From Alphaproteobacteria bacterium UBA828 (GTDB taxonomy: Bacteria > Pseudomonadota > Alphaproteobacteria > UBA828): DNA of 64,000 nt. Numbering within the stretch: the stretch's first letter is position 1; the number at the start of each line of letters is the position of its first letter. Location: NCBI GenBank assembly GCA_002296185.1, contig DBHM01000006.1, positions 1,091 through 65,090 of the forward strand. The letters run 5' to 3'. The notes beneath the pieces were generated by a model that was not told the origin of the DNA, searched no databases, and worked only from the letters and a program-made list of their open reading frames with translations. The position numbers and the translations under genes were made by a program. Below are positions 12,457 to 47,251 of the stretch, one piece after another.

Positions 12457-12458
12457 TT

Positions 12459-13352: not shown

Positions 13353-13380
13353 ACGAAAAATCCCCTTGAGCATGACGCAA

Positions 13381-14048: not shown

Positions 14049-14101
14049 AGCGTTTATTTACTTTAATAAAAATTATGATATTTCATCAGAAACTAACGTT
14101 T

Positions 14102-15409: not shown

Positions 15410-15448
15410 TTCTTTTAAACCCTTCTTTCATCGAACAATATAGCATAA

Positions 15449-19344: not shown

Positions 19345-19514
19345 TATAGCGCTTACTCCCAATTGGCACTTTAGTTAAAATTATATAAGTGATACAATAC
19401 CCCTCCAAACATATATTCCAAATAATAATTATTGTAATATATAGAGTAGTAATGCCTATACTACCAATGTGTAGTTATTGTTGACTAATATCTGCATTTC
19501 AGGGGAAGACCAGC

Positions 19515-23044: not shown

Positions 23045-23049
23045 AAATC

Positions 23050-23994: not shown

Positions 23995-24012
23995 TTTTAG
24001 CTCTCTATACCG

Positions 24013-30436: not shown

Positions 30437-30525
30437 ACAATTTTGCAATAAAGTATTTAGTAAAAATTCGATTGCTTATCATATAGACAATATATTTATA
30501 AACTTTGAATTACTGGGGATTTTCA

Positions 30526-31002
30526 ATGAGCTCTAAATCAACTGCCACTAAAGAAAACAAACTTAGCGAACAAGAGGTTAATGAACGACTATCTGCTCGT
30601 GGCTATGCACACTTTGCTAGCTATAGGCCAGATGGGATGATTCACTTAACTCCTATATGGTATAATTGGAACGGTAGTCAATTTAGATTGACTTTAGGTG
30701 CTGGGAGAATTCATTTAAAAAACCTTGCCTTAGATCCTCGATGCTCAATATTAGTTGATGAGGACCCTCGAGTAACAGAAGGCCTAGCAGCAGGAGCTTG
30801 GGCAATAATGTGCCGCGGTAATGCAGAGCTTTCTCAAGATCCAGATCTAATCAAAGAAGTTACACATGCTGTTCTATCAAAAACCCTAGGGCCGAAAGAT
30901 GCAGATGAATATACTGTGCCAATTATGGCCGAAGGCAGAACTATAGTTACTATAACACCAAAAGATTGGTTAACCTGGGATTACAACAAAGGAGAAGATT
31001 AA
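30526..31002 (+). CDS. PPOX-class (pyridoxamine-5'-phosphate-oxidase-fold) probable F420-dependent enzyme
   Basis: The block RPDGMIHLTPIWYNWNGSQFRLTLGAGRIHLKNLALDPRCSILVDED matches the split-barrel PPOX pattern. I placed the start at ATG 30526 with a GGGGA Shine-Dalgarno; the track uses TTG at 30505. Confidence 0.7.
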   Translation: MSSKSTATKENKLSEQEVNERLSARGYAHFASYRPDGMIHLTPIWYNWNGSQFRLTLGAGRIHLKNLALDPRCSILVDEDPRVTEGLAAGAWAIMCRGNAELSQDPDLIKEVTHAVLSKTLGPKDADEYTVPIMAEGRTIVTITPKDWLTWDYNKGED

Positions 31003-31098: not shown

Positions 31099-32115
31099 TT
31101 AATTCGAAACCTTTGCTGCACGCGGAGGCGCCGAAAGTTTTGGGGTTGTTGCTTTATCGGGACTGTCATGGTCTCTAGTTAACATCTCCACGTCATCACG
31201 GGCCCCTTCTGGATCATTGACCCATTTATCGTAGAACTCGAAGGGATTTTTTGCATGTCCACCAGGTTCAGATGTAAAACCACGGTGAACTAGATTATAT
31301 AAATGATTTTCAGCCGTCCAATTTCTCCTAGCATCTCTAATTGTAGTTAAAGATAGAGTTGCATAGGTCGCCTCATCAGGACCTGTACCGCACTCAGCCA
31401 GCACACTACCGTCAAAGTCAACTATATTTGAATGACCAAAGTATGAATAAACCAGGTCCCGGCCAGCCATATTTGCGACTGCAACATAAGTTAAGTTTTC
31501 CCAGGCTCTTACTTGAGCAATTTGCCTCTGTTGTTCCTTTGAAGGATACATGTAACCCTGAATTCTAACTACAAGCTCAGCACCTTTCATAACAGTATCA
31601 CGAACAATTTCTGGCATATTACAATCATAGCATATCGTACCACCAACCATGAGTCCTTTCGGCCCTTCTGCCACAGCTGTTTCATGACCGGCTGTCCAGG
31701 GCTCTTGAGGAGTCCAGGGGAAAATCTTTCTATACACTAAACATGTTTCACCCTGATCATTAATCATCACTAAAGTATTATAAGGATTCAAACCATCCGG
31801 ATGTTCTTCGCCAGTTAACGAGAAAATCCCATACACTCCATTTTTCTTACATGCTTCAGAGAAAATCTGCATCTCATCTCCAGTAAGAGTTGTAGTAAGG
31901 TCAGACCATTTTGTTGGATGAAACCCCTGAGTAGTATATTCTGGGAAAACTATCAGATCTAATCCTGGATAGCCCCTTTTCATCCCATCTATAAAACCTG
32001 ATATTCTTTTGCAATTGTCAATTACCTGGCTCTTAGTCTCAACTACTGGAACTTGGTAATTAACTACAGCAACACCAACTGCATCATCACTAGAAGATAT
32101 CGATCCCTGTGGCAT
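31099..32115 (-). CDS. nitrilase-superfamily aliphatic amidase / formamidase (AmiE/AmiF-like)
   Basis: 338 aa. It is collinear with AmiF/AmiE as I recall them: VAVVNYQVPVV; GLDLIVFPEYTTQG, which holds the catalytic Glu; KIFPWTP; and ICYDCNMPE, which holds the catalytic Cys. Confidence 0.8.
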   Translation of the reverse strand: MPQGSISSSDDAVGVAVVNYQVPVVETKSQVIDNCKRISGFIDGMKRGYPGLDLIVFPEYTTQGFHPTKWSDLTTTLTGDEMQIFSEACKKNGVYGIFSLTGEEHPDGLNPYNTLVMINDQGETCLVYRKIFPWTPQEPWTAGHETAVAEGPKGLMVGGTICYDCNMPEIVRDTVMKGAELVVRIQGYMYPSKEQQRQIAQVRAWENLTYVAVANMAGRDLVYSYFGHSNIVDFDGSVLAECGTGPDEATYATLSLTTIRDARRNWTAENHLYNLVHRGFTSEPGGHAKNPFEFYDKWVNDPEGARDDVEMLTRDHDSPDKATTPKLSAPPRAAKVSN

Positions 32116-32604: not shown

Positions 32605-33081
32605 GTGCAAAAAAATTCTAACAAAAAGAAGCCCAAAAGCACTAGAAAACGTTGGATAATATTTAGCGCAATATTATTAATATTTATAGTAATAGTTGCG
32701 TTATATGAAACTCAACAAGAGTTAAAACGAAATCAAAATCAATCTATACAACCAAATTTAACATTACTCGAACGCTCTCAGAAAGCTATATCATCTCTAA
32801 AAAAGTATTATCGCTACCATGACCTTCCAGTTGACTGGGAAGTAGGGGAAATTATAGCAGAAGGTATACCTGAATCTCCAAAAATAACTACATCATTATA
32901 TTTCACACCTAGCTTAAGATCTAGCAGGCATGGACAAGCATCAACACCAGGAGAGATTACTTCAATTATTGCTTGCCCAAAAAGCGAGGCTCCCTGGAAA
33001 GATTTTAGTGAATTTCAAATTATAATAGAGTTGAATGATAAAAATGGATTTGTAGAAAAATTTAAATGTATAAATCTATGA
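32605..33081 (+). CDS. hypothetical membrane-anchored protein (158 aa)
   Basis: It has a GTG start and a basic N-terminus followed by a hydrophobic helix (WIIFSAILLIFIVIVALY). No family recognised. Confidence 0.4.
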   Translation: MQKNSNKKKPKSTRKRWIIFSAILLIFIVIVALYETQQELKRNQNQSIQPNLTLLERSQKAISSLKKYYRYHDLPVDWEVGEIIAEGIPESPKITTSLYFTPSLRSSRHGQASTPGEITSIIACPKSEAPWKDFSEFQIIIELNDKNGFVEKFKCINL

Positions 33082-33087
33082 GATGAA

Positions 33088-33828
33088 CTATTCAGGTAAT
33101 GGCGTAAATACGGCAGAGCCTCCGCTTGAACCATGCTGCGACCTCCACATTTCCACTAACTTCATACCCGCAGCTTTTTCATCAGATGACATTTCACCTA
33201 TGACTTTTTCTAATGCAGTTAACGCGCTACCTATACCATGTTGACTTGCTAAAGATAGCCAGAGGTAAGCTTCGACTCGATCTTTCTTAACGCCATCACC
33301 AACATGATACATGTGCCCTAATCTACCCTGAGATTGATGATGCCCATTTTCAGCTCCTTTACGATACCATTCGGCTGCCTTAGTTGGGTTTTGTTTAACA
33401 CCATCACCCTTTGTATATAGTACTGCCATATTGAATTGAGCATTTGCATCTCCATTTCTCGCCGCTCTACGTATCCAACGTACAGCCTCAGCCATATCTT
33501 GACCAACCCCCTGACCCATTGCATAGAGAGCGCCAACGTTTGCCTGAGCTTGAGGGTTTCCCCCTTTTGCAGACCTAAGATACCATTGGAATGCGACAGA
33601 TGGATCTATTTTCACACCATCCCCATTGGCATAAAGCGAACCCACCCATGCCTGAGCCTCAACATCGCCGTTTTCAGCTAAAGGAAGCCAAGTATTCATA
33701 GCTTGATCAAAATCCCCTTTCATATATGCCTTGCGCCCATACTCCAGGGTTTCCAAGCGCAAGGATTCGCGCTTGTCGTCTGATGTAGTTTTCTTATGGC
33801 TTTGTTCTGTCACTTTTTTTGTAGACAT
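33088..33828 (-). CDS. Sel1-repeat (TPR-like) protein
   Basis: It has at least five Sel1-type repeats (AQAWVGSLYANGDGV, AQANVGALYAMGQGV, AQFNMAVLYTKGDGV, SQGRLGHMYHVGDGV). The start is uncertain: 33870 GTG, 33849 or 33828. None has a convincing Shine-Dalgarno and all overlap the upstream ORF. Confidence 0.7.
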   Translation of the reverse strand: MSTKKVTEQSHKKTTSDDKRESLRLETLEYGRKAYMKGDFDQAMNTWLPLAENGDVEAQAWVGSLYANGDGVKIDPSVAFQWYLRSAKGGNPQAQANVGALYAMGQGVGQDMAEAVRWIRRAARNGDANAQFNMAVLYTKGDGVKQNPTKAAEWYRKGAENGHHQSQGRLGHMYHVGDGVKKDRVEAYLWLSLASQHGIGSALTALEKVIGEMSSDEKAAGMKLVEMWRSQHGSSGGSAVFTPLPE

Positions 33829-34099
33829 ATATACAGTCCATATCTTCATCACCTTTCTTAACAGACTCACCGTCTGTACCTAGGCGATCGAGAAAGTAGT
33901 TTTGAATTGTACGAGCAGCATAAAAAGTTAATGCTTGTTTATATAACCATGGATCATCGTTTTCATCTAGACCATGGTTTTCAAATAGTGTTTTTTTCGG
34001 ATCAGCAGAAATACCTACATAGTAATCTGAAAAGTCCCCCCCAAACTCTTTGATATAAGCAAGAACTTCATATTTTATCTGCTGAACGCTGAAAACCAT
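33794..34099 (-). CDS. hypothetical protein (101 aa), possibly the N-terminal part of a frameshifted fusion with the Sel1 ORF
   Basis: The ORF starts 26 nt after the oxygenase-like gene and ends inside the Sel1 ORF, in the frame one nucleotide off. An A7 run on the coding strand (T7 at 33814-33820) lies in the overlap. Confidence 0.4.
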   Translation of the reverse strand: MVFSVQQIKYEVLAYIKEFGGDFSDYYVGISADPKKTLFENHGLDENDDPWLYKQALTFYAARTIQNYFLDRLGTDGESVKKGDEDMDCIYVYKKSDRTKP

Positions 34100-34125: not shown

Positions 34126-35292
34126 CTAACGCCTTGCATTCGAATACAATGGCGCATTCCATACATATTCATAATCTGTTAAAAGTTTGTTAATTATATA
34201 CTGTTGAAATATATAACCAGGGCCAGAGGGCCCCTTCGGTAATATTTCATTCGATGTTCCGGGACTATGTGGAGTCCCCCATGCCTCATAAACTCTATGG
34301 TTCTTAATGGAAATAGTGTTTGCTTCTTCCAGACGGTCACGCCATAAAGCATTATAAATGTCAAATTCTCGATCTATTAACTTTGCACTAGGATCTTGCA
34401 AGAATCGAACTCTAATAAGCGCCTCATCAAGGCCGGTTGGCTGAACAATAATTGTTGTAGAAAATTCCTCTGAAAATTCTATCAATGTATTAGGAAAAAT
34501 CCAAATCAAAGTGAATGGTCTTTCTGATCGAGAACCATTTAATACCAAATACTCTGGCGCCTCAGATTTATCATATTTTTTTGCAGAAAGCTCCTCCCAG
34601 TGATGAACCAAGCCGAGCTCGTTACCAATTGCCTCGATAATGGCTGGCATAAGAACTTTCCAATTACCATCTAATGGCATCCAAAATCCTGATAGATCTA
34701 TAAAACTATCCAGTTTTTTATTCGCACTCTCATCCAGGCCACTTAATTGTTCAACAAGACTATTTGAATTTTGATCTACGTTTACAAATACACGCCCTGC
34801 CCAGGTTTCAACTCTTATAGGAAGCATTCTTTCAGGCATGTCTCCAACAAAGTGTCTCAGGGTAGGTGTATCTTTATCAACATCAGAGATCTTTAGAATA
34901 TCTCTGTCTCTACTATAACCGCAGGATGTATAAGAGCACTTTGTTTTTTTTCCAGTTTGACACTGTGCGGGGACAAAACGGCAACCTCCATGTTGCGCGA
35001 AGTTAAAACGTCCAGATAATTGACCCTTATTAAGCTGAACATGTATACCGTGATTTCCTAGTGTGTAAGGTAAAAGATCACCTTCTTCTGACAACTGATT
35101 TTTGTTGCCAATACAACACCACTTACGTGTCCAAACTTTTTCATCTTCTAATTCAGAAAAAATACGCGACCTATAAGCAACTGGAGGTAAAATGTTTGCT
35201 ATTCCCTCTTTTGCTATAGATCCATCGTATATTGCAGGATCTGTTAGATCTAGACCTTCATCAAAATAACCAAGTTCTGGATGTAGAGCCAT
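34126..35292 (-). CDS. ring-hydroxylating-oxygenase alpha-subunit-like protein with non-canonical Rieske site
   Basis: The N-terminal pattern LPPVAYRSRIFSELEDEKVWTRKWCCIGNKNQLSEEGD follows the Rieske-oxygenase alpha layout. The cluster-ligand boxes, however, read QHGGCRFV and KCSYTSCGYS instead of CxH and CxxH. I placed the start at ATG 35292 with a GAGGA Shine-Dalgarno. Confidence 0.5.
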   Translation of the reverse strand: MALHPELGYFDEGLDLTDPAIYDGSIAKEGIANILPPVAYRSRIFSELEDEKVWTRKWCCIGNKNQLSEEGDLLPYTLGNHGIHVQLNKGQLSGRFNFAQHGGCRFVPAQCQTGKKTKCSYTSCGYSRDRDILKISDVDKDTPTLRHFVGDMPERMLPIRVETWAGRVFVNVDQNSNSLVEQLSGLDESANKKLDSFIDLSGFWMPLDGNWKVLMPAIIEAIGNELGLVHHWEELSAKKYDKSEAPEYLVLNGSRSERPFTLIWIFPNTLIEFSEEFSTTIIVQPTGLDEALIRVRFLQDPSAKLIDREFDIYNALWRDRLEEANTISIKNHRVYEAWGTPHSPGTSNEILPKGPSGPGYIFQQYIINKLLTDYEYVWNAPLYSNARR

Positions 35293-35371
35293 TGTTTCCT
35301 CAGAGCATAAATGTAGCAACAGTAACCCCGGCACTATTACACTCAGGTGTTCTCATATGTAATAGTGCAGA

Positions 35372-35400
35372 AAGGTGGAGTAAATAAACTACCCCACCTT
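35372..35400 (-). terminator. weak hairpin after the DMFase-like large-subunit gene
   Basis: AAGGTGG (35372-35378) pairs with CCACCTT (35394-35400), giving a 7-bp stem and a 15-nt loop. There is no clear U tract, so it could be an attenuator or nothing. Confidence 0.25.
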
Positions 35401-35417
35401 CCCATTCATGCACGTCA

Positions 35418-37814
35418 CTATTTACGTTGTTTATTCATAGGCGGATCATAGTCTGCACGTCCACGATGAATAACTGAATCCTCTGGAGCATCAGGTAAAG
35501 GACCATCCTGTGAAAAACGGTCAAGAACATTGCCCACAAGCTTAGATATATTATTATCACCGTTATTCCATGGTAAAGAACCACAGAAAGCAATAGAACT
35601 AAATGCAAAACATGCACCACCATTAGGTGTCTCATGATACGCAATGTCCGAGCGTACCCTAGGATGCTGTGTTCCGTCTAAACCTTGCTGATTAAATCCG
35701 AAGTCTTCCATAACCAAAAGGTAGCCCTCAGTATGCCTACCAGCTGAAGTTGCAACAATAAGGGTATGAGGAGGTGAACCAAGCATAGTATCAACTATAT
35801 CAAGTTCAGTACCTGCTGCTCCACCGCCAACTAGGCCAAAGTTTCCTAGCTTTTCATCATACTCAATACCTTCAAATGCCCAAGCAACCCGTGGATCGTT
35901 AGACTCAGGAGTCCTAGAATAATAACTAGATATATCAAAGCCCTCAGATGACATCCCTGTTCCAGCAACTGAGTGGAGATACCTTCCTCTATAACGCCAC
36001 ATACCTCCAAGTTCACCCGTGCTCTGGTGATAATACTCTCCAGGATCAGCGCGCCAGGTTCTAATACCTGACTCGCATCGACGCATTTCAGTAACTATCC
36101 CCCTACCCAGATGATCGTAAGCTGGATGGAATGAATGAACCCAATACCATGCGTCTGCGCCCATGTACATTAGGCGGCCACCACGTTGCGTGTAATCATG
36201 CAGGGCATCTAGTTGAGGTCCTGAATTATGCTCAGGATGGGAACCAGTAATAATAACATTATAATTTTCTATACGTGCAAGTCCGTCATAGTTGACATCC
36301 TCATCTGTTATAATGTCATATTTATAGCCCATCTGATTAAGCCAATAGATTAGGTGTAGGTCAGCAGGATACTGCCACGGTGCCTGCATAAGGAAGTGAT
36401 CATATTGAGGTCTTATACTTAGTATAGGCCTCAGTCGTGACGATAAGCACAAACCACTACCATCCGTATGAGTATCGTAAATGGAACCACCATACTCTCG
36501 GTGTTCAGCTAAAAACATATTTTGATGTTGCATTATTGGAACTCTATATACTAGAAGCTCCGCGCCACCTGCATTGTTTGCCAAATGCTCATTAGCATAT
36601 GCCATATAGCTTATTGTCGGTATCATTACAGCGATTTTTGACTGTTCTTCGCCAACGCGTGGGACAACCCAAAATGGAATATAGTCCTCGTCGCCTTCTG
36701 AGGTTGTAACTTTTACACAGTAGTTATCACTTTCATAGCCCTCAGGGACATCCCAATCGAAACTCACTTCCCATCTTGCATCATCAACATCATCATCATG
36801 AAAATGGATTGCCCCATACTCTTGAGGTGCATGCTTCCAATCAAAGTTATGGCCAGTGAAGTTATGGCCAGTTAAAGCACGAGTTGGGCAATTTACGATC
36901 TGCGCATCAAACACATAAGGACCATGATCCTTTCCTACTATGGTATTAATTCCATCGGAAAAATCCCATGCAGCCACAATACACTTTGACAGCTCTCCTG
37001 TAGGACCCGCATTCCTACGCTCAGTTAGACCTCTCTGAGCACCCTGTTTCATTGTCTCAATATCCGCCCTACTTAGAGCACGATCGCAGATCCTTGGGCT
37101 GTCAATCTTTCCGTTGTAGTGACCATTTATAACTATGCCGCTAGGAACAGAAGATTTTGCTGTTGGATCGTTACTATGCTCTCCTGTATAACCAGCAATA
37201 ACAACAGGACTACCATCATGTTTTATAGGACCACTTACTTTCTTACTTACCGGAGGAATAACTGGATCTAAAGCATAAACTACTTGAGGCTCGTGGTATA
37301 ATATAGCCTCTCCTGTTTGTGCATCATAACTTGCAGCTAAGAAATGCCATGCATGATCACGAATTGGAGCTCCCGTAGTTATTTTTTCTCCATTAATACG
37401 TAGTTCAGCACATCCGTCTTCATTTATAAAAATCCCATAACCCGTGTCCTGATGCCATTTAGTTACCAGGCCCTGAGCACCATGTTTCCAATACTTAGGG
37501 TGAGTTTTCGGGGTTGTTGGCCAAACCCAACACTGAATTGTAAAACTGTCTACACGGAATTGTTTTTTATCTTCAACAAAACCATACGAACCACTGTGTA
37601 TAGTCTGCTTTTGCCCATTATGAGTTCCATTAAAGGATGCATCAAGATCGTGCTCAATTACACCCGGACCTCGGGGATTTGTATCACCATGAATCATCTT
37701 AACCAATTGCGCATCAAACTTGCCAGGTCCATCGCAATTTACATAGAATTTAATTTTATCTCCTGGGTGCACACCAAACTTGTCAGCGTATCCAGTCAGT
37801 CTCATCCAAGACAT
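35418..37814 (-). CDS. N,N-dimethylformamidase large (beta) subunit-like protein
   Basis: 798 aa. Long collinear blocks match the DmfA2 sequence as I recall it: LVKMIHGDTNPRGPG, EDYIPFWVVP, TISYMAYANEH, PADLHLIYWLNQMGYKYDIITDED, VIITGSHPEH, VGGGAAGTELD and NNISKLVGNVLDRF. Confidence 0.85.
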   Translation of the reverse strand: MSWMRLTGYADKFGVHPGDKIKFYVNCDGPGKFDAQLVKMIHGDTNPRGPGVIEHDLDASFNGTHNGQKQTIHSGSYGFVEDKKQFRVDSFTIQCWVWPTTPKTHPKYWKHGAQGLVTKWHQDTGYGIFINEDGCAELRINGEKITTGAPIRDHAWHFLAASYDAQTGEAILYHEPQVVYALDPVIPPVSKKVSGPIKHDGSPVVIAGYTGEHSNDPTAKSSVPSGIVINGHYNGKIDSPRICDRALSRADIETMKQGAQRGLTERRNAGPTGELSKCIVAAWDFSDGINTIVGKDHGPYVFDAQIVNCPTRALTGHNFTGHNFDWKHAPQEYGAIHFHDDDVDDARWEVSFDWDVPEGYESDNYCVKVTTSEGDEDYIPFWVVPRVGEEQSKIAVMIPTISYMAYANEHLANNAGGAELLVYRVPIMQHQNMFLAEHREYGGSIYDTHTDGSGLCLSSRLRPILSIRPQYDHFLMQAPWQYPADLHLIYWLNQMGYKYDIITDEDVNYDGLARIENYNVIITGSHPEHNSGPQLDALHDYTQRGGRLMYMGADAWYWVHSFHPAYDHLGRGIVTEMRRCESGIRTWRADPGEYYHQSTGELGGMWRYRGRYLHSVAGTGMSSEGFDISSYYSRTPESNDPRVAWAFEGIEYDEKLGNFGLVGGGAAGTELDIVDTMLGSPPHTLIVATSAGRHTEGYLLVMEDFGFNQQGLDGTQHPRVRSDIAYHETPNGGACFAFSSIAFCGSLPWNNGDNNISKLVGNVLDRFSQDGPLPDAPEDSVIHRGRADYDPPMNKQRK

Positions 37815-37895
37815 ATTTAACTCCCTTCCCCCACCTGTGCTCTAGTAAGACATAAGCTGATAATAACATCCATGAATCTTGCACAAGGCGAACTA

Positions 37896-37915
37896 TTTAA
37901 TTTAATTTAATTTAA
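37896..37915. repeat. (TTTAA)x4 pentanucleotide microsatellite in the dmfA1-like/dmfA2-like spacer
   Basis: Four perfect tandem TTTAA units are read directly at 37896-37915. Confidence 0.9.
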
Positions 37916-37934
37916 TTTTTCTCCTCAGAATAAC

Positions 37935-38375
37935 TTAGGTGGCTGCCCACCCATCGTCACGACGCTTCCAACCTTCATGATAGTGTTCTGGGTATCCGTC
38001 ATTCTCAGAAAATTCATCGAGACGCATCAAGAAAATATCATGTTGTGGATCTTGTTCATTGTCATAAATTTTATCATTAACAAACTCTGGAGGAACACCG
38101 CGGATACCAGATGCTCGGCCAATTCTCCACTCCTTTTCAACCTTAGTACAAATCACTAGCAGTTTCCCCTTAGCAGGCTGGGCGCGCATACGTAAAAGGA
38201 CACGATTAAGAAGATGATCCTCGTGGATTCCTCCAGAAACATCGGTTGTATCCCCAGGCGTAGCGCAGCGTAAAATTGTACACCCAGGCACACCATGCAT
38301 GGATTCAATACATGCTTTGTGCTCGGCTATCAGGCGACCTCTTTCGTTACTCCCCTCTGGCGGTATGCGTATCAT
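37935..38375 (-). CDS. N,N-dimethylformamidase small (alpha) subunit-like protein
   Basis: 146 aa, in the position (immediately upstream of the large subunit) and size class expected for DmfA1. There is loose similarity to the remembered DmfA1 (RMRAQPAKGK...EKEWRIGRA; HDIFLMRLDEF). Its RBS context (AGGGAGTTAAA) is the same as that of the large-subunit gene. Confidence 0.5.
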   Translation of the reverse strand: MIRIPPEGSNERGRLIAEHKACIESMHGVPGCTILRCATPGDTTDVSGGIHEDHLLNRVLLRMRAQPAKGKLLVICTKVEKEWRIGRASGIRGVPPEFVNDKIYDNEQDPQHDIFLMRLDEFSENDGYPEHYHEGWKRRDDGWAAT

Positions 38376-38453
38376 ATTTTTAACTCCCTATCCATAAGCT
38401 CTAAAAACTTTTAATAAAATACTTAATTACTAATATTTCAATTTTGAAACTAT

Positions 38454-39152
38454 TTATAAAGTTAGATACTTGTCGACTATTTCATCAGTGAGCTCCCCAA
38501 TAACCCCCCTCTCAGCTATCCTTCCATTATCCATTATAACAAAAGCATGAGATAGCTCTCTAGCTACCCTTATATGCTGTTCAGTTAGGACTAAGGTAAG
38601 TCCAACTTCTTTATTTAGGCGAAGAATAGTTGCCTCAATCTCTTGAACAATATTCGGCTGAATACCCTCTGTAGGCTCATCTAATAAAAGTATCTTAGGA
38701 TCAGTTGCCAATGCTCTCGCTATAGCTAACTGTTGCTGTTGTCCTCCAGAGAGTGTTCCAGCCCTTTTATCTAAGTTCTCAGCAAGGTAAGGAAAAAGTT
38801 CAAGGCACATGTCTGGAATTGATCTTTGATTATCAGCTCTAGCGAAAGTACCTAAGAGTATATTTTCCTTAACAGTAAACTTCGGAAGAATACCGCGGCC
38901 CTGGGGTATATAACCAACACCAGCTGCTGAACGCTCATGAGTTTGGCTATTTGTAACCTCTTCCCCGGCAATATGCATTTCTCCTGTCATCCGTGTGGTG
39001 AGACCCATTATTGTTCTGACAAGAGTTGTTTTTCCAACACCATTCCTACCCAGAACTGCCAGACAGTGACCATCCTCAACACCTACGTCAATATTCTGTA
39101 GTATTGGTGTTTTACCATAAAACGAGGTGACATCCTTTAGTTCAAGCAGCAT
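38454..39152 (-). CDS. ABC transporter ATP-binding protein, UrtE/LivF-like
   Basis: 232 aa with Walker A GRNGVGKTT, signature LSGGQQQQ and Walker B LLLDEP. Confidence 0.85.
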   Translation of the reverse strand: MLLELKDVTSFYGKTPILQNIDVGVEDGHCLAVLGRNGVGKTTLVRTIMGLTTRMTGEMHIAGEEVTNSQTHERSAAGVGYIPQGRGILPKFTVKENILLGTFARADNQRSIPDMCLELFPYLAENLDKRAGTLSGGQQQQLAIARALATDPKILLLDEPTEGIQPNIVQEIEATILRLNKEVGLTLVLTEQHIRVARELSHAFVIMDNGRIAERGVIGELTDEIVDKYLTL

Positions 39153-39897
39153 CTGTTATCCCCTCACTACCCAGATAAACCTCTCGAACTTTTGGGTCAT
39201 TCTCAACCTGATCCATTGGACCCTCGGCAAGTGTTTTGCCCAAGTGCATCAATGTAATAATATCTGCAATTTCTCTAACAAAGGCCATGTCATGTTCAAC
39301 AACAATTAGAGTGTGCTCGCCCTTAAGACGATTGAAAATATCAGAAGTTTTCTGTGTCTCTTGCTCTGTCATACCAGCTGTTGGCTCGTCCATTAGCAAG
39401 AGTTTTGGGTTCTGTGTTAACACCATACCAATCTCAAGCCATTGAGTTTCTCCATGGCTAAGGTTACCAGACAACTCGTCAAGCCTTTCTTGCAGCCCAA
39501 CTAATTCGACAACTTGCTGAAGGCGCTCTCGGCCAGAACCCCTTCCAAACTCAATCATATTCATGAATGGATTAGTTGTACGAGTCAAAGCAACCCTTAG
39601 ATTTTCCTGAACTGTTAGATCCTTAAAAACTGCAGGAATCTGGAATTTTCTGCCAATACCCTGTTGACAGATTCTATGCTCACTCATACCTGATATCTTA
39701 CGTCCCTGGAAAACCACCTTACCACTTGTCATCTTTTGACGACCGGTAATTAAATCCATGGTCGTTGTTTTACCAGCACCATTTGGCCCAAGTAAGCACC
39801 TTAGCTCGCCCTCATTTACTGTCAAATTAAAGTTATCAACAACCGTATAGGCGTCATAAGCCTTAGTTACTCCATGTAATTCAAGGATGGCACTCAA
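39142..39897 (-). CDS. ABC transporter ATP-binding protein, UrtD-like
   Basis: 251 aa with Walker A GPNGAGKTT. The signature LSHGETQWLEIGMVL resembles the UrtD-type LSHGQKQWLEIGM rather than LivG. Confidence 0.85.
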   Translation of the reverse strand: MSAILELHGVTKAYDAYTVVDNFNLTVNEGELRCLLGPNGAGKTTTMDLITGRQKMTSGKVVFQGRKISGMSEHRICQQGIGRKFQIPAVFKDLTVQENLRVALTRTTNPFMNMIEFGRGSGRERLQQVVELVGLQERLDELSGNLSHGETQWLEIGMVLTQNPKLLLMDEPTAGMTEQETQKTSDIFNRLKGEHTLIVVEHDMAFVREIADIITLMHLGKTLAEGPMDQVENDPKVREVYLGSEGITDAA

Positions 39898-39921
39898 TTT
39901 TCTTGCTCTCCTTTCACAGTA

Positions 39922-41022
39922 TTACTTTTGTTGACCAGAGATGAGGCTTCTACTTGGAGGTAGGGGATTCGGCACAAAACTTATTGCGTACTCAAATAAC
40001 CCTGCAAAACCCTTGGGGAGAAACCGAACCACTACGATAAAAACAGTACCTAAAATAATGAACCACGTAGCCTGGAACTCATCTCCAACATAACTCTGAG
40101 CGGCATTAATAAATATTGCTCCGAATATAGCTCCAAATAACGACATACGCCCACCTACGGCTGCCCATATAACTATCGTTATACTAAAGAAAATCTCCAA
40201 GGCTGTAGGTGATACATATTGAACAATTATAACCCAAACCATTCCCCCAAGAGCAGCGATCAAACCACCCAATGCAAAAACTACGACCTGGTAAAAAGCA
40301 ACGTTATAACCTAAGAATCTCGCCCTTTCAGAGTCATCTCGTATTGCCTGGATTATTGTCCCAAATTTACTTTGAAGTAATAACTTGGTTAAAAGAGTAA
40401 GTGCTGCTAGGACACCTAAAGAGACCCAGTAAATCATACTACTATATGGGTCAACTTCGACGCCGAAGGCCTGAAATGCATTCGGTGGAGATATACCATT
40501 AAAGCCAGCTGTAAATGGCTGCATGTCATATGCCATATTGTACCAAGCACCAAGCATAGCGAGGGTCATAATTGCAACAAAGGCCCCAGCTAGCCTTGCC
40601 TGAAACATTAGCAAACCAAACAAAACGAAAAAAACAACCGGTATACCCATTGCAAGTATGAGACCTACTGAGGTATGCCAAAAGGGCTCCCAAACAGTTG
40701 GTAAAGCAGTTAGCTCATTAGTTAACATAAAACTTGGTATAGGATCATTTACAGGATCCTGATATTGCATTTGCATAGTAGCTGCCATCCCGTAGGCGGC
40801 CATGCCAAAAGCGATACCCTGACCCAAACTAAGTATGCCCCCGAAACCCCAAACAAGACTGACAGACAACGCTAAAATACCAAATACTCCATATCGAGCA
40901 TACTGATTAAGCGTAAATGGGTCATCACCCATCCAAACTGGTATTAGAGCTAGCACCCCAAAAGCTACTAGATACACTGCCCATTGAGCACGCTTATCAT
41001 GATAAAGGTTACGTTTTTCCAC
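39922..41022 (-). CDS. HAAT-family ABC permease, UrtC-like
   Basis: 366 aa, polytopic and hydrophobic, in the operon position of UrtC. Confidence 0.8.
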   Translation of the reverse strand: MEKRNLYHDKRAQWAVYLVAFGVLALIPVWMGDDPFTLNQYARYGVFGILALSVSLVWGFGGILSLGQGIAFGMAAYGMAATMQMQYQDPVNDPIPSFMLTNELTALPTVWEPFWHTSVGLILAMGIPVVFFVLFGLLMFQARLAGAFVAIMTLAMLGAWYNMAYDMQPFTAGFNGISPPNAFQAFGVEVDPYSSMIYWVSLGVLAALTLLTKLLLQSKFGTIIQAIRDDSERARFLGYNVAFYQVVVFALGGLIAALGGMVWVIIVQYVSPTALEIFFSITIVIWAAVGGRMSLFGAIFGAIFINAAQSYVGDEFQATWFIILGTVFIVVVRFLPKGFAGLFEYAISFVPNPLPPSRSLISGQQK

Positions 41023-41048
41023 TGCTATATACCCCTACCCAAACAGCT

Positions 41049-41951
41049 CTATCGCCTAGCCATGCTAGGAGTAAATATTCCTTGAGGACGGAACCTAAGG
41101 AATATCACAATTAAAACAAACAGCACGAAACGGGCAAAAGTGTCATTAGTAAAGTATGAGAATATCGAGAACATTTCACCCATGATACCAGCGGTTGCTA
41201 GACTACCAAATAACTCCCCACCGCCTGTAACAACTACAAGAAATGCCTCCACCACGTATCCGAGTCCCATATCAGGAAAAATTGTTTTTAAACCGGAGAA
41301 CATAGCCCCAGAGATACCTGCAAGACCAGCACCATAAGCAAAGGTTAGACCATACACTTTACTAGAATTTATACCAAAAGATGCAGCCATTTCCCTATTC
41401 TGCATCACCGCTCTAACTTGAACCCCAAAATTAGATTTATACAGGAGGAGCCATGTAAGACCAACAAGCCCTAGGGCAAGACCAAAAATGAATATTCTTA
41501 TTGATGGTATGTACACAAAACCTATTTCTATTACAGATTTCAACCATTCTGGAGTATCAATGTACTGAGGTTCCCCCCCAAATATAAGTCTTATACTTTG
41601 TATGAAAACAAGAGAGACCCCCCAGGTCGCAAGAAGGGTATCAAGAGGTCTCTCGTACAAATGTCGAATCAAACCACGTTCGACAAGCCAACCTATAAAA
41701 CCCACCACGACAAACGATATCGGCAGACATAACAGCCAAGGGAAACCTAAAAAATACTGCAATATCCATGTAATATAGGCGCCCAGCATAATAAACTCGC
41801 CATGTGCCATATTTATGACACCCATAGTTCCATAAATTATGGTCAAGCCGAGCGCTGCCACCAGCCATATACTGGCAAGACTGAGGCCTATTATTAACGC
41901 ATTAATAAATGGCTCTAATGCAAAAGGAGTCCAAAAGTCATGGACGCTCAT
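41049..41951 (-). CDS. HAAT-family ABC permease, UrtB-like
   Basis: 300 aa, polytopic. The YGTMGVINMAHGEF motif is typical of LivH/UrtB permeases. Confidence 0.8.
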   Translation of the reverse strand: MSVHDFWTPFALEPFINALIIGLSLASIWLVAALGLTIIYGTMGVINMAHGEFIMLGAYITWILQYFLGFPWLLCLPISFVVVGFIGWLVERGLIRHLYERPLDTLLATWGVSLVFIQSIRLIFGGEPQYIDTPEWLKSVIEIGFVYIPSIRIFIFGLALGLVGLTWLLLYKSNFGVQVRAVMQNREMAASFGINSSKVYGLTFAYGAGLAGISGAMFSGLKTIFPDMGLGYVVEAFLVVVTGGGELFGSLATAGIMGEMFSIFSYFTNDTFARFVLFVLIVIFLRFRPQGIFTPSMARR

Positions 41952-42066
41952 ACCTGATAACCCTACTGCCTAATATAAAAAAACTTTTAAATAACATACT
42001 AATAAATCTCAAAAAAGCGACGGGACAGAAGTATTTAAACTTCTGCCCCGAAACCCCATTAGTGAC

Positions 42067-43410
42067 TTATAAAACGTCCTTCTGGATTGTCCCATCTGGC
42101 TTATGTAGTCCATCAGCCTTACAGACACCACGATCAGGATAGATTGCAAAAGGATCTGGGCCAACATGCTCAGGAGCCTCCTTAACAATAGTGAACTGAC
42201 CGTTAGACCCACACTGTCCAATTTTTGGCTTAAGCCAAATATTAAAGTTATCTGGGTCAATCCAAACCTTACCTTCTGGAGACTCTTCATCCGTAAGACC
42301 AACAGGACCTTGGCCATTCCAGTTTCCTGAAACGTCACGAATCATCCTTGGAGTAATGGCTTCCCAATCACCACCTGCCTCTTCAAGAGCACGTTCAACG
42401 CCCTTTTTCCAGATGAGAATTCCAAGATAAGTCTCTTCCATGTTGTAGTGAGTAACTCCACCGCCACCATACTTACTAGATAGATAAGCGTCCACAAACC
42501 ATTCATTTGTTGGATTTTTAAGGTCCTGGAAGTAAGGAGCAGATAAGAAGTGACCAGCTCCAGCCTCATGACCCATGGCGGCTGTCTCAATCTCACCAGT
42601 AGTCAAAGCGGCGATCGGCATCTTATCAGATTTGAAACCCTCTTGAAGGAACTGCCTATGAAGGGCAATGTCTGAATCTCCAACTACAGTTGACATAATC
42701 CAGTCGGGTTTTTGCTGACGAATTTTGTTGAAGACAGGTGAGAACTCAGAACCACCAAGTGGCACATAATCTTCACCAACTACTTCACCACCAGCTCTCT
42801 CTAACCATACTTTAACGTTCTTGTTAGACTCTTTTGGCCAAATATAGTTTGAGCCAACAAGATAAACCTTCGGTCCAAATTCTTTAACCATATAAGGCAC
42901 AAGATCGTAAGAGTGCTGATTAGCCAATGGACCAGTATTAATAATATTCTGCATACATTCGCGACCCTCATAACAAGTCGGATAGTAATACAGGTGATTC
43001 CACTTCATGATAATTGGCATCACAGCTCGACGACTGGCAGAAGTGTAACTCCCATGAACGGTAGCGACCCGATCACGAAGAATAAGCTGGGTCATTTTCT
43101 CAGAATAAACTTTAATATCGGATTTTGCATCGACCACTACTGGCTCGATTTGTTTACCAGCAATACCACCTTCTGCATTCAACTTATCTATTGCAAAAAG
43201 TGATACTTGAGTGGAGTCGTTTTCTACAACTGACAAGTTTCCTGTTAGTGACCAGAGAAGTCCGACTTTAACGTTGCCGTCCTTCGTTATCCAGGGCTTC
43301 GCACCCCAGGCCTGGCCGTGATCCTTAATATACATCTGCGGAAATGCAGCAGCGACGCCAGCAGCACCAACTGCTGCGCCCTTTACAAAGTTTCGACGGC
43401 TAACTCGCAT
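42067..43410 (-). CDS. Tat-exported periplasmic binding protein of the urea / short-chain-amide (UrtA/FmdD/AmiC) type
   Basis: 447 aa with a twin-arginine signal (MRVSRRNFVKGAAVGAAGVAAA). Blocks match the UrtA pattern I recall: GLLWSLTGNLSVVE, NAEGGIAGKQIEPVVVD, SYTSASRRAVMPI and YYYPTCYEG. Confidence 0.8.
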   Translation of the reverse strand: MRVSRRNFVKGAAVGAAGVAAAFPQMYIKDHGQAWGAKPWITKDGNVKVGLLWSLTGNLSVVENDSTQVSLFAIDKLNAEGGIAGKQIEPVVVDAKSDIKVYSEKMTQLILRDRVATVHGSYTSASRRAVMPIIMKWNHLYYYPTCYEGRECMQNIINTGPLANQHSYDLVPYMVKEFGPKVYLVGSNYIWPKESNKNVKVWLERAGGEVVGEDYVPLGGSEFSPVFNKIRQQKPDWIMSTVVGDSDIALHRQFLQEGFKSDKMPIAALTTGEIETAAMGHEAGAGHFLSAPYFQDLKNPTNEWFVDAYLSSKYGGGGVTHYNMEETYLGILIWKKGVERALEEAGGDWEAITPRMIRDVSGNWNGQGPVGLTDEESPEGKVWIDPDNFNIWLKPKIGQCGSNGQFTIVKEAPEHVGPDPFAIYPDRGVCKADGLHKPDGTIQKDVL

Positions 43411-43685: not shown

Positions 43686-44969
43686 TTAATCCACAGGGTA
43701 AACATCGAAAGCTATCCCAATTCTCTCTCCACTTACCGAGAAAGGGATAGTCCCATGGAAAAAATATGAAGGAAAACAACGCGCTATGCCTACTATCGGG
43801 GGTAAAGAAATAGTTTTTGGGCTAAAATCAGCAGGTAATATATAGTCAGGACGCCCAAATTCTAACCAACCATCCTGATCACTTTCAGGATTTAAGGCAG
43901 AAACTTGTTCATTTACAGCCTCATAATTAATTAATGGAGAATTGACATAATAAACACCGCTTAACCATGCAGCCTCATGAAGGTGAGGGGGATGCCAGCC
44001 ACCCGCCTTTAATATGGATGCAATAAATTTAAGCTTATAATTGCTAGGTATGCGGTTTAAAAAAGGATGGTCAATTTCAGGTTCCAATGATTTTATCCAT
44101 TGATCAATCGACACCCTTAAAGCCTTCTCAAACTCTTGAATAGCTCGGTCTGGCTTTAACAACATATTATCAGTAACAGCTCCATTTTGAGTAACTCTGT
44201 TCAGAGGCTCCCAATTTAATGTTGGACAAACTTTCACTGCCTCAGAGAGTGCGTAGTTAAAATCATCATCTGACTCGTAACCTACAGGACACTCCACTCG
44301 AGGGGAATAAACAAGGCGACTAAAGTCTTGAAGCACATCAGCCTCCCCCTGCCTATCTAATAGTTGTAGTGCCATTACTTTTGCTGCCAGAGCGTTTTGA
44401 CACCACTGATTAATAGCTAAACATCTTTCAGCTTCAACGAGCGCATCACAAGCTTTTCCAAGACCAAGTAAAGTTGTTGCAAGTCGATAACTAGGCTCTA
44501 AAGCTTGATCATCAATTTCTATAGCTCGCCTGAAAGAAATTTCTGCATCCTCTAGATCACCATTACCAATTAAGGCCTCTCCCAAATTTGTATGCGCATT
44601 GGCATAACTGGGCTGAAGACTTATTGACTTATTATAACAATTTATAGCTAGGTTATAATTTCTCTCTTCGAGATAAATATTTCCAAGACTATTTTGAGCC
44701 TCAGCATACTCAGGGGCTATTTCTATAGCTTTGATGAGTTCTTCTTTAGCAGCGACATAATCACCTGACTGATAGTTTGCTACGCCCAAAAAATGTATAG
44801 ACGTTGCATCATCAGGAGCTTGCTTAACAGCCCTTGTCAAAAGTTGTTTTGCCCGATCTGGCCTTCCAGCACTTAAATGCTTAACAGCTGTCTTAATTAA
44901 TTCCTGGTGTTTTTGGTCATGGCGCATGACTTTGCTTTTACGTCTGCGCTCCATTCTATTCATACGCAA
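43686..44969 (-). CDS. TPR-repeat protein with C-terminal 2OG-Fe(II)-oxygenase-like domain (TIGR02466-like)
   Basis: 427 aa. The N-terminal half has several TPR units (AEAQNSLGNIYLEERNYNLAINCYNKSISLQP...). The C-terminal half has GWHPPHLHEAAWLSGVYYV and FFHGTIPF motifs, as I recall for that family. Confidence 0.65.
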   Translation of the reverse strand: MRMNRMERRRKSKVMRHDQKHQELIKTAVKHLSAGRPDRAKQLLTRAVKQAPDDATSIHFLGVANYQSGDYVAAKEELIKAIEIAPEYAEAQNSLGNIYLEERNYNLAINCYNKSISLQPSYANAHTNLGEALIGNGDLEDAEISFRRAIEIDDQALEPSYRLATTLLGLGKACDALVEAERCLAINQWCQNALAAKVMALQLLDRQGEADVLQDFSRLVYSPRVECPVGYESDDDFNYALSEAVKVCPTLNWEPLNRVTQNGAVTDNMLLKPDRAIQEFEKALRVSIDQWIKSLEPEIDHPFLNRIPSNYKLKFIASILKAGGWHPPHLHEAAWLSGVYYVNSPLINYEAVNEQVSALNPESDQDGWLEFGRPDYILPADFSPKTISLPPIVGIARCFPSYFFHGTIPFSVSGERIGIAFDVYPVD

Positions 44970-45387: not shown

Positions 45388-46107
45388 TTAGGCAAAAAGC
45401 CAATTAAAAGTAGCTGATGAAGCCTCACTTAGAACCCAAAATCCAATACCAACAGATATAATTCCAAGCGTAAAAATCATATAATTGTAACCCCAAGAAA
45501 GTCGTTTCATTAGACTCCTAAGCGGTACAGCAATTACAACAGTCAGTAATGCCATGCCTGTCATGGCACCCAACCCAAAAAGACCAATGTAAACCAGACC
45601 AGTCCAAATACTTTCAAAATTATCTATAGCAAAAATTAGAAGAGCAGCTGACCCGGCCATCCCATGCATTAACCCAACTAAAAAAGCTCTGAGAGTAGGT
45701 CGACGTAAATGCTGATGATTATGGTCTATATTTTTATGCGGAGTTTGAATACCGTGAGAATGTGCATGAAAATGAACAGTTCCATCTGAATGTCGATGGG
45801 AATGAAAATGAATACGTGCTTTTTTCAATCTTAATATTACGTCTATTCCTAGCCAAACCAGCATTAACCCCACTAAAAATTGGAGTAAATATGATATATT
45901 AGTGGGTAGAAAAGTATCGAAGGACATAACAATTATTCCAACGGCACAAAGAGTAAGAGCGTGACCACCACCCCAGGCAAAGCCCATCTTTAAAGCTTCT
46001 TTAGGCTTTTGATTGCCTGATGCAAGCGTTGCAACAGCTGCCAGATGATCAGCATCTAAAGCATGACGTAAACCAAGAAGAAAACCAAAAAATAATGCAC
46101 TACCCAT
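45388..46107 (-). CDS. NicO/RcnA-type nickel/cobalt transporter
   Basis: 239 aa with the signature GLRHALDADHLAAV (the HxxxxDH box of nickel/cobalt transporters). It also has a His-rich loop, HFHSHRHSDGTVHFHAHSHGIQTPHKNIDHNHQH. Confidence 0.75.
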   Translation of the reverse strand: MGSALFFGFLLGLRHALDADHLAAVATLASGNQKPKEALKMGFAWGGGHALTLCAVGIIVMSFDTFLPTNISYLLQFLVGLMLVWLGIDVILRLKKARIHFHSHRHSDGTVHFHAHSHGIQTPHKNIDHNHQHLRRPTLRAFLVGLMHGMAGSAALLIFAIDNFESIWTGLVYIGLFGLGAMTGMALLTVVIAVPLRSLMKRLSWGYNYMIFTLGIISVGIGFWVLSEASSATFNWLFA

Positions 46108-46204: not shown

Positions 46205-47251
46205 TTACCAATTACCAGAGAATTTTTTAAACTCAGTGGGAATTTCTTTGATTTCTTGAATTAAGTCTGAGGGCAAAGTAGATGGCTTATCTATTGAAGT
46301 GCTCCCGTATATTGAATCAGCAACACCAATAAATCTAGTCTTTATAGCTGCTACAATTTCATCATATCTACCTACAGCAGAAAATAAATAGACAAGGTCA
46401 TCAGATACCTCAGCAGACATTTTATCCCAGAGTCCTTCTTTAGTCATTTTGTTTAATTTCCTTCCCAAGTCCCCATATCCATGGTGTTCCAGAACAGGCC
46501 AGTATGATGGAGTGGAGGCATAGAAAGCAATTCTATATCTCACCCATTCAATTGAAGAAGCAACCTCCTGGTCTGTTGCCCCAGTTGCTAAAAATCCCCC
46601 CCCAGTTACCTCAAAGTTCTCACGGGATAACCCTCTTTCATCAAGTTCTGTTTCTATAATTTTTAAAGCAACCTGCTTAGCATAAGAGTGAGTGCAAAAA
46701 GGGTGTAATCTAACTCCATCAGAGCAAGATCCAGCTAATCTTAATGAGTGCTTGCCAACAGCGGCGATAGTTATAGGAATAGGCGGATGACCATCTGAAG
46801 GTGGAACAAAATTTGGTGGCATTAAAGTAAAGGTATAGTGATCACCTTCAAAAAAGAGTTTTTCGCCTTTTTCCCAAGAAGACCAAATTGCCCGTAAGGC
46901 TTGAATATATTCGCGCAATCTAGGCACAGGAGCAGACCAGGGAACAGAAAATCTTTTTTCATTGTGAGGCTTTATTTGCGGCCCAAGACCAAGCACAAAT
47001 CTTCCCTTACTTGCTAACTGCAAATCCCAGCATGTATTTGCTACAACCATAGGGCTTCTAGGAAAAGCTATCGCAACGGCTGTACCTATTGAAATTGAAG
47101 TACTTGATACAGCAGCTAAACCAAGGGCAAGAAACGGATCATGGCGATTTTCCATTGTAACAACCATATCATAGCCATTTTCCTCAGCTGCCTTTACAGC
47201 CCTACCTACATCGCTAAGCATATTTTGGGGAATAGTTTGGAGGATTCTCAT
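46205..47251 (-). CDS. LLM-class (probable F420-dependent) oxidoreductase
   Basis: 348 aa with LLM features (ENGYDMVVTMENRHDPF...GRFVLGLGPQIKPHNEKRF). Its ATG overlaps the stop of the LarE-like gene (ATGA at 47248-47251). Confidence 0.75.
   Translation of the reverse strand: MRILQTIPQNMLSDVGRAVKAAEENGYDMVVTMENRHDPFLALGLAAVSSTSISIGTAVAIAFPRSPMVVANTCWDLQLASKGRFVLGLGPQIKPHNEKRFSVPWSAPVPRLREYIQALRAIWSSWEKGEKLFFEGDHYTFTLMPPNFVPPSDGHPPIPITIAAVGKHSLRLAGSCSDGVRLHPFCTHSYAKQVALKIIETELDERGLSRENFEVTGGGFLATGATDQEVASSIEWVRYRIAFYASTPSYWPVLEHHGYGDLGRKLNKMTKEGLWDKMSAEVSDDLVYLFSAVGRYDEIVAAIKTRFIGVADSIYGSTSIDKPSTLPSDLIQEIKEIPTEFKKFSGNW

Follow-up and report, generated by a model that had tools for sequence, protein, structure and literature searches.

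A gene cluster encoding an N,N-dimethylformamidase-family enzyme and a predicted short-chain-amide importer in Alphaproteobacteria bacterium UBA828

Introduction

N,N-Dimethylformamidase (DMFase) is generally portrayed as acting on a man-made solvent, N,N-dimethylformamide (DMF), with an odd iron site and an unclear natural role. To our knowledge, DMFase and a beta-phenylalanine acylase are the sole characterised activities of the family. Here we describe a locus of this family in a 64,000-nucleotide stretch of contig DBHM01000006.1 from Alphaproteobacteria bacterium UBA828; the whole stretch is referred to as the window, and positions count from its first letter. The locus joins a two-subunit DMFase-type enzyme to a five-gene ATP-binding cassette (ABC) importer and to three further genes, one of which resembles the alpha subunit of a Rieske oxygenase. 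A preliminary description of the window had interpreted it as a dedicated system for uptake and cleavage of a natural small amide. The finding is real and the core of that interpretation is right at the family level; corrections apply to the supposed oxygenase, to the ribosome-binding sites (RBSs) and to the rarity of the system. We think it likely that the cell uses the locus to take up and hydrolyse a small, neutral amide of natural origin, which would supply nitrogen and, in methylotrophs, C1 units as well.

The closest described enzyme is the Paracoccus DMFase (PDB 6LVB; DmfA1 and DmfA2 of plasmid pAMI2), which has two subunits, the gene for the small one lying directly upstream of the gene for the large one. 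It hydrolyses DMF, formamide, N-methylformamide and N-ethylformamide, and neither acetamide nor urea is a substrate. Its structure shows an Fe(III) ion held by Y399, Y440 and E521; H519, E657 and N547 are each essential, F693 lines the pocket, and the N547A mutant is inactive on DMF (PMC7686228). Only one other kind of structure has been solved within the family, that of N-acetyl-(R)-beta-phenylalanine acylase (PDB 8I5A/8HUY). This acylase belongs to the same large-subunit family, which thus hydrolyses amides beyond formamides. The DMFA2 family as a whole is large, with 1066 clusters matched at E 1e-30 or better in a library clustered at 50% identity.

On the transport side, the urea transporter UrtABCDE has a five-gene HAAT-type layout that the window importer shares. 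In the amiEBCRS system of Pseudomonas aeruginosa, AmiC is a sensor, AmiR an antiterminator, AmiS a channel and AmiE a nitrilase-superfamily amidase. In contrast, the AmiC-like protein of the window is an exported transport component, and the hydrolase is an iron enzyme of the DMFase family. The window importer presumably also resembles the short-chain amide-urea transporter FmdDEF of Methylophilus.

Results and discussion

The large subunit belongs to an Asp547 clade of the DMFase family

The 798-aa protein of the cluster had been described as collinear with the DMFase large subunit, and this is borne out: it matches 6lvb_A with an E value of 4e-155 over residues 5-775 and carries the same domains, LamG and DMFA2_C (PF20254, 3e-87). 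The beta-phenylalanine acylase is matched over its full length as well (2e-111) and is the more distant of the two solved relatives. We aligned the window protein and 80 relatives (selected as described below) with 6LVB, pAMI2 DmfA2 and the homologues from Aminobacter niigataensis DMFA1 plasmid p1 and Agrobacterium pAt. The three iron ligands, Y399, Y440 and E521, whose conservation the preliminary description had proposed as a check, are intact in the window protein and in all 80 relatives. Likewise, H519, E657 and F693 are kept in all 81 members of the clade. Position 547 is different. The residue is Asp in 81/81 clade members and Asn in 6LVB, pAMI2, Aminobacter p1 and Agrobacterium pAt; 12 further outgroup representatives also retain Asn547, in the motif GNGFYW, where the clade has ADAWYW. 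Replacement of this Asn by Asp may suit a substrate that carries an N-H group.

Overall, the window protein is about 40% identical to 6LVB and pAMI2 DmfA2 (38% for pAMI2), and is no nearer to characterised DMFase than to three other clades. In the 50%-identity library its clade appears as one full-length representative, 77% identical to it, and the next full-length member is at 47%. As judged from these alignments, the large subunit is a member of an uncharacterised orthogroup of the DMFA2 family, with identities of 70-92% among alpha-, beta- and gamma-proteobacteria.

Most database annotations suggest instead that the cluster is a genuine N,N-dimethylformamidase operon for DMF. Indeed, DMFase is the best PDB match, all of its iron ligands are retained, and the source records name relatives "N,N-dimethylformamidase"; in a database protein search, members of the clade were routinely auto-annotated as DMFase or as LamG-domain protein. 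We nevertheless regard a DMF operon as highly improbable. Identity to the characterised enzyme is only about 40%, no higher than to three other clades, and the very residue whose mutation to Ala inactivates DMFase on DMF is replaced. Moreover, Paracoccus aminophilus carries both types: the true DMFase is on pAMI2, and an orthologue of the Asp547 clade, 70% identical to the window protein, is on pAMI5. The pAMI5 orthologue is described as "not linked to DMF utilization", and a strain cured of pAMI2 is unable to use DMF, indirect evidence that the orthologue does not support growth on it. The clade is also abundant in open-ocean metagenomes, where we assume that DMF is not an expected nutrient, and the AmiC-like pocket of the binding protein (see below) would be too small and too dependent on a hydrogen-bond donor for a tertiary amide. 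The label "N,N-dimethylformamidase" for the Asp547 clade, and counts of "DMF degraders" built on it, are probably wrong.

The 146-aa protein is a small-subunit homologue

The preliminary description had placed the 146-aa product as the small subunit because of its gene position, directly upstream of the large-subunit gene. Profile comparison upholds the assignment. With the single sequence, the top match in the PDB was 6lvb_B, which was weak (E 0.058); when a profile of 16 orthologues was compared with pAMI2 DmfA1 by hhalign, the probability was 88% and the E value 3e-6 over the C-terminal 72 columns. The precomputed Pfam assignment of the protein is DMF_alpha. Only the C-terminal half of the protein aligns with its Paracoccus counterpart, DmfA1. 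In the remaining N-terminal half, H19, C22, C37 and C76 are invariant in the 16 orthologues; these residues may form a clade-specific metal or disulfide site.

The binding protein has an AmiC-like pocket

The four membrane and ATPase components were proposed to be of the Urt type, and all of them, UrtB, C, D and E, score above the NCBIfam equivalog cut-offs for urea transporters, three of the four only narrowly (Table 1). The binding protein does not follow: against the UrtA model it reaches 316 bits, far under the cut-off of 493. Its export by the twin-arginine translocation (Tat) pathway, also proposed earlier, is predicted by TIGR01409 (22.8 bits, cut-off 16.7), and the Pfam TAT_signal score of 19.1 bits lies under the cut-off of 22.7.

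A study of Prochlorococcus UrtA found that the urea-contact residues W120, S122, Y141, Q144, E146, Y190, N246 and S274 are strictly conserved in UrtAs. Mutation of S122, Q144, Y190 or N246 significantly lowers or abolishes urea binding, and W120A abolishes it. We mapped twelve pocket columns through PDB alignments to AmiC with acetamide (1PEA) and to UrtA (7S6E). The resulting signatures are YSYTCEYWTVLT for the window protein, YSYTPEYYTVLT for AmiC and WSYIQEYFTNYS for UrtA. The window protein thus equals AmiC at 10/12 positions, the exceptions being P107, which is Cys, and Y152, which is Trp. In contrast, the UrtA contacts W120, Q144, N246 and S274 are replaced by Tyr, Cys, Val and Thr, respectively. 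In UrtA, one amino group of urea is held by the polar side chains of Q144 and N246; AmiC also has Val at the N246 position. The YSYTCEYWTVLT signature is common to 51/54 distinct orthologues of the binding protein, and most of the paralogous binding proteins that stand beside sensor kinases in related loci have the same signature or a closely similar one. Since the pocket resembles that of AmiC and is devoid of Q144 and N246, the importer is best described, on present comparisons, as a predicted short-chain-amide system of the Fmd/Ami type rather than a urea-specific one. Assignment of the binding protein as a urea-specific UrtA was rejected on both its score and its pocket residues.

The ten-gene arrangement recurs across proteobacteria

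A scan of a one-genome-per-species collection yielded 193 stretches encoding relatives, and the best 80 were retained for locus counts. In these counts, the denominators for synteny are the loci with enough flanking sequence, and neighbours were counted by tblastn. The 80 retained loci come from alpha-, beta- and gamma-proteobacteria, with large subunits 76-92% identical to the query. The named hosts are mostly methylotrophs (Methylopila, Hansschlegelia, Methyloligella, Hyphomicrobium, Methyloversatilis, Ancylobacter, Xanthobacter and Methylobacterium), accompanied by the marine Planktomarina and many marine metagenome-assembled genomes; a protein search adds Bradyrhizobium, Mesorhizobium, Bosea, Aminobacter and Paraburkholderia. 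The identical 798-aa sequence is itself encoded on six contigs on record, three of which trace to metagenomes (one TARA Oceans assembly, one from JGI and one further ENA assembly). The earlier statement that the enzyme is known from a handful of isolates therefore holds for DMFase proper and not for the Asp547 orthogroup.

The small-subunit gene lies directly upstream of the large-subunit gene in 76/77 loci, and the five ABC genes lie directly upstream in 53/60, which answers the survey of enzyme-importer co-occurrence suggested in the preliminary description. The Rieske-like gene stands beside the enzyme genes in 67/67 loci, and the gene for a Sel1-repeat protein is likewise found in 67/67; that for the 101-aa protein is found in 65/67. 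The nine-gene unit described earlier is real as far as its open reading frames (ORFs) go, but the conserved unit has ten genes, the Sel1 gene being the addition. Recurrence across the retained loci confirms that this ten-gene arrangement is more than chance.

Other clades of the family are arranged differently. The pAMI2, Aminobacter p1 and Agrobacterium pAt clades do not have the Rieske-like, Sel1 and 101-aa genes. The Paracoccus DMFase adjoins a LuxR regulator alone, whereas the window enzyme is linked to the importer and to the three accessory genes. On pAMI5, the order is small subunit, large subunit, Rieske-like gene, 101-aa homologue and an AmiS/UreI-family channel; the channel takes the place of the ABC system, and a divergent set made up of a binding protein, a kinase and a response regulator is alongside. 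The preliminary description had named no characterised example of the importer-enzyme-oxygenase wiring. Within the literature library searched, no paper describes a cluster of the window type. Two of the three clades without the accessory genes also adjoin HAAT-type ABC transporters, so that coupling to an HAAT/Urt importer is not confined to the Asp547 clade.

The neighbours of the unit include regulators and other amide- or urea-related genes. A binding protein with a hybrid kinase and a LuxR-type regulator is present in 29/80 loci, and an AmiR-type antiterminator (AmiR_N + ANTAR) in 7/80; Methyloversatilis pairs its AmiR gene with one for an AmiC-like protein. Homologues of AmiR, AmiC, AmiS/UreI and AmiE, i.e., of the amiEBCRS products, thus stand beside the module in various genomes. 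A homologue of the aliphatic amidase AmiE occurs within 10 kb in 7/80 loci, and in about 18/80 the cluster is immediately flanked by structural or accessory genes of urease.

The AmiE gene of the window lies 1.7 kb downstream of the cluster, with an opposite-strand gene in between, and is possibly linked to it in function. Conceivably, the importer mainly feeds this AmiE, and the DMFase-like module rides along with an unrelated substrate of its own; an AmiE equivalog so close by and a pocket that fits AmiE substrates would agree with such an arrangement. We give it very little credence, because AmiE is near the cluster in so few loci, most loci have the importer directly upstream of their DMFase-like genes, and the opposite-strand gene separates AmiE from the cluster in the window.

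The urease neighbours and the UrtB-E scores make a urea-related role a real alternative; the pocket of the binding protein argues against it. The enzyme would then be an iron-dependent, nickel-independent hydrolase of urea or a hydrolase of a urea derivative (N-methylurea, N-formylurea), its product or substrate pool would be shared with urease, and the transporter would be the urea importer of the cell. The urease genes that abut the cluster (ureE-F-AB-C-D) occur in several lineages, the channel gene adjoining the enzyme genes on pAMI5 is of the AmiS/UreI family, and the change of Asn547 to Asp could suit a substrate bearing N-H. However, the binding protein falls far short of the UrtA cut-off and has neither W120 nor Q144 and N246, two of the four mutation-sensitive residues; the Paracoccus DMFase is inactive on urea; and most loci, including the window, have no urease genes nearby. 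On balance, we consider a urea-related role unlikely.

The order of the urease genes beside the cluster is ureE-ureF-ureAB (a fused gamma/beta gene)-ureC-(gap)-ureD, in loci L039, L049, L062, L064, L067, L070, L073-L075 and L078-L082. It differs from the common order ureDABCEFG. In about 12 loci (L026-L041, L038, L077), the genes for the 101-aa protein and the sensor binding protein are separated by one for a protein of 450-470 aa with an N-terminal membrane segment and no Pfam match.

The Rieske-like protein has lost metal sites of an oxygenase

The preliminary description had assigned an oxygenase-like protein to the cluster. Compared as a 40-sequence profile, this 388-aa protein matches alpha subunits of Rieske oxygenases, most closely the carnitine monooxygenase CntA (6e-17), and its AlphaFold 2 (AF2) model (pLDDT 81) has CntA (1.5e-15) and the stachydrine demethylase Stc2 as top Foldseek matches. 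With the CntA/Stc2/GbcA group it shares the alpha-subunit fold, a Rieske domain plus a helix-grip catalytic domain. The ligands differ. Aligned with CntA, the protein has Ala for the first Rieske Cys and Thr for the second His, so that two of the four ligands are lost (C-H-C-H becomes A-H-C-T) and three new invariant Cys are gained; invariant instead are H101, C104, C111, C119 and C124 (388-aa numbering). The 2-His-1-carboxylate site of the group is absent: alignments of 40 and 82 homologues show no conserved His, Asp or Glu in the catalytic domain. Conservation of the C-terminal domain is poor overall, and across the syntenic loci the conserved unit contains no reductase or ferredoxin gene.

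A two-step pathway, with the Rieske-like protein as an active oxygenase such as an N-demethylase working before or after the amidase, would accord with its constant presence beside the enzyme and with the fact that its fold and profile similarity is highest to oxygenases of quaternary amines and N-methyl groups, namely CntA, Stc2 and GbcA. Furthermore, binding of an Fe-S cluster by the His+Cys4 motif, which is invariant, is conceivable. But with two Rieske ligands and the whole catalytic iron site lost, a C-terminal domain of low conservation and no electron-transfer partner in the unit, such a pathway seems very unlikely to us. The ligand analysis led us to reject the protein as a working oxygenase, and with it the importer-enzyme-oxygenase pathway appears unlikely.

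Its two companions are less readily placed. The 101-aa protein has no Pfam match and no match in a PDB profile search, and its AF2 model (pLDDT 93) has no significant Foldseek neighbour, the nearest being a weak resemblance to RidA/YjgF at E values of at least 0.2. The Sel1-repeat protein is, in our reading, cytoplasmic, as we saw no signal peptide. The Rieske-like, Sel1 and 101-aa proteins would serve as accessory proteins, as partners or in maturation, and not as a second step of catalysis.

A candidate pathway for a small natural amide

In the mechanism that we favour, the Tat-exported binding protein would capture the amide in the periplasm with its AmiC-like pocket, and the UrtBC-type permeases with the UrtDE-type ATPases would import it. 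A cytoplasmic heteromeric enzyme of the DMFase family would then cut the C-N bond, yielding formate or another short acid together with ammonia or methylamine. The large subunit would supply the 2-Tyr-1-Glu Fe(III) site, His519, Glu657 and the clade-specific Asp547, and the small subunit would stabilise it. The earlier proposal that the most likely substrate is a natural small amide rather than DMF finds support in these comparisons. Formamide or N-methylformamide would be the first guess, because characterised DMFase hydrolyses formamides and not acetamide or urea; primary amides of the acetamide class would come second, because the pocket is AmiC-like. DMF is an unlikely substrate.

Several points weigh against an uptake-and-hydrolysis system of this kind. 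We infer the substrate solely from pocket similarity and gene neighbours, and the AmiC-like residues do not separate formamide, acetamide, N-methylformamide and small urea derivatives. What the sequences show is homology, conserved residues, the pocket signature and the neighbouring genes; the substrate class and the roles of the accessory proteins and of the hairpins are deduced from these. The UrtB-E scores and the adjoining urease genes of some loci, set out above, leave some room for a urea-related role. The Rieske-like, Sel1 and 101-aa genes are strictly co-inherited with the enzyme, and their products could take part in further chemistry. Finally, the pAMI5 evidence is a growth phenotype, and the genes there may simply not respond to DMF.

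More tentatively, the Asp547 clade and its partners, the Rieske-fold protein with its His+Cys4 motif, the Sel1 protein and the 101-aa protein, might together constitute an unrecognised multi-component iron amidohydrolase system. Its substrate might be a urea derivative or a small natural amide of global distribution, for example formamide or N-methylformamide. The clade would then be the natural lineage alongside which the xenobiotic DMFase arose, and would open an overlooked route from dissolved organic nitrogen to ammonium or methylamine in the ocean and in methylotrophs. We hold this broader proposal to be possible and rather doubtful.

A conserved clade that is wired to an amide importer, amide-sensing regulators, an aliphatic amidase and urease suggests a natural function that is directly testable. 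Should formamide or N-methylformamide prove to be the substrate, small amides would enter marine nitrogen and C1 cycling by a new route through this system. Proteins annotated as DmfA, from alpha- and gamma-proteobacteria, have been detected in a Pacific metaproteome (PMC9477243) and may include members of the clade. For protein evolution, the rewired metal ligands of the Rieske-fold protein hold an interest of their own.

Gene layout and expression signals

All nine co-directional minus-strand ORFs reported earlier were recovered in the same order by ORF calling (Table 1). The spacers are exactly as described: 115, 26 and 24 nt, an 11-nt overlap, then 78, 120, 125 and 26 nt. The 125-nt spacer depends on the ATG start at 35292 for the Rieske-like gene, which is the start in the public gene call and gives the 388-aa product; a GTG alternative is at 35334. 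The G+C content of the window is about 40%. In a scan of the window at Rfam gathering thresholds and a tRNA scan, no known RNA element and no tRNA was found.

Table 1. Features of the amide cluster and its flanking amidase gene in the window
Feature	Position	Strand	Evidence
Periplasmic binding protein, 447 aa, predicted twin-arginine signal, AmiC-like amide pocket	42067-43410	-	PF13433 1e-107
12-bp GC-rich hairpin + T-run between binding-protein and permease genes	42021-42050	-	z -3.9
UrtB-type permease, 300 aa	41049-41951	-	TIGR03409 326.6 bits vs cut-off 250
UrtC-type permease, 366 aa	39922-41022	-	TIGR03408 307.3 bits vs cut-off 296
UrtD-type ATPase, 251 aa	39142-39897	-	TIGR03411 322.6 bits vs cut-off 304
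UrtE-type ATPase, 232 aa	38454-39152	-	TIGR03410 291.5 bits vs cut-off 286; 11-nt overlap with UrtD-type gene
DMFase-type small (alpha) subunit homologue, 146 aa	37935-38375	-	DmfA1 profile comparison, 6lvb_B, DMF_alpha
DMFase-family large (beta) subunit, 798 aa, Asp547 clade	35418-37814	-	PF20254, 6lvb_A
Two adjacent stable hairpins directly 3' of the large-subunit stop codon	35331-35403	-	minimum free energy -48.7 kcal/mol, z -5.8
Degenerate Rieske-oxygenase alpha-subunit-like protein, 388 aa	34126-35292	-	CntA profile match, AF2 + Foldseek
101-aa alpha/beta protein, no family or fold match	33794-34099	-	AF2 model
Sel1-repeat protein, 246 aa	33088-33828	-	PF08238 1e-38; overlaps 101-aa ORF by 35 nt
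Aliphatic amidase AmiE, 338 aa; outside the core unit	31099-32115	-	NF009802 440 bits vs cut-off 427

An identical RBS context before the two subunit genes had been taken as a sign of matched stoichiometric translation. The sequence AGGGAGTTAAA is indeed present 5' of both subunit ATGs, and these are its only two occurrences in the window; however, it is not conserved even in a 92%-identical relative. The Shine-Dalgarno core GGGAG is also found upstream of the binding-protein and AmiE genes. We rejected the 11-mer as a conserved stoichiometry signal, since it is not kept in relatives and GGGAG is the general Shine-Dalgarno sequence of the genome; the match is a local coincidence of a strong Shine-Dalgarno sequence with an AT-rich spacer. 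The spacer between the small- and large-subunit genes also holds about five tandem copies of AAATT (37895-37919).

The hairpin at the large-subunit stop codon recurs in position and structure in most related loci, with a different sequence and, in several, a T-run after it. Among 78 distinct 70-nt segments following the stop codon, 46 have z below -2. The pair at 35331-35403 has no second copy in the window that would mark it as a dispersed REP-like repeat. The recurring hairpin after the large subunit suggests graded expression between enzyme genes and accessory genes, and the hairpin at 42021-42050 would be an intra-operon attenuator or stabiliser; together, the hairpins after the binding-protein and large-subunit genes probably grade expression along the unit. 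With graded expression, a single nine-gene operon is plausible, probably with internal attenuation.

Flanking genes and other features of the window

Two flanking genes adjoin the cluster only in the closer, mostly marine, relatives. Upstream, 43686-44969 encodes a TPR protein that weakly matches, below threshold, a C-terminal region like that of TIGR02466; downstream, on the opposite strand, 32605-33081 encodes a 158-aa membrane protein (15 and 26 loci, respectively). The TPR gene was rejected as part of the system, its conservation being limited to these close marine relatives.

Genes for a nickel-pincer cofactor flank the amide cluster and appear unrelated to it. They encode a LarA-family "NPN isomerase group 22" (14102-15409, 473 bits), a LarE sulfur transferase and a weakly matching NicO-like nickel/cobalt transporter (45388-46107 and 47248-48120). 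The upstream NicO-like and LarE genes had been candidates for parts of the system and were dismissed, as LarE and the LarA-family isomerase form this separate set.

The window also carries a full-looking set for F420 biosynthesis, which is unusual for a marine proteobacterium (20965-26429, 26734-27702, 29396-31002 and 46205-47251). It comprises CofC, CofD, an F420 ligase, two radical-SAM CofG/H-like genes and an F420-dependent NADP oxidoreductase, accompanied by four F420-type LLM oxidoreductases and a PPOX-class F420 enzyme.

At 10385-13397, three adjacent genes for an amidotransferase, a GXGXG protein and an FMN glutamate-synthase-like protein have a layout like that of the N-methylglutamate synthase MgsABC of the methylamine pathway. 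None of them has an NCBIfam equivalog match, and gmaS and mgd were not identified among the scanned ORFs of the window. The region from 755 to 19362, which also contains malate synthase G, is rich in C-N hydrolases: PxpABC-like 5-oxoprolinase genes at 3479-6136, an amidase-signature enzyme at 6154-7563 and caprolactamase-like hydantoinase A/B genes at 15449-19362.

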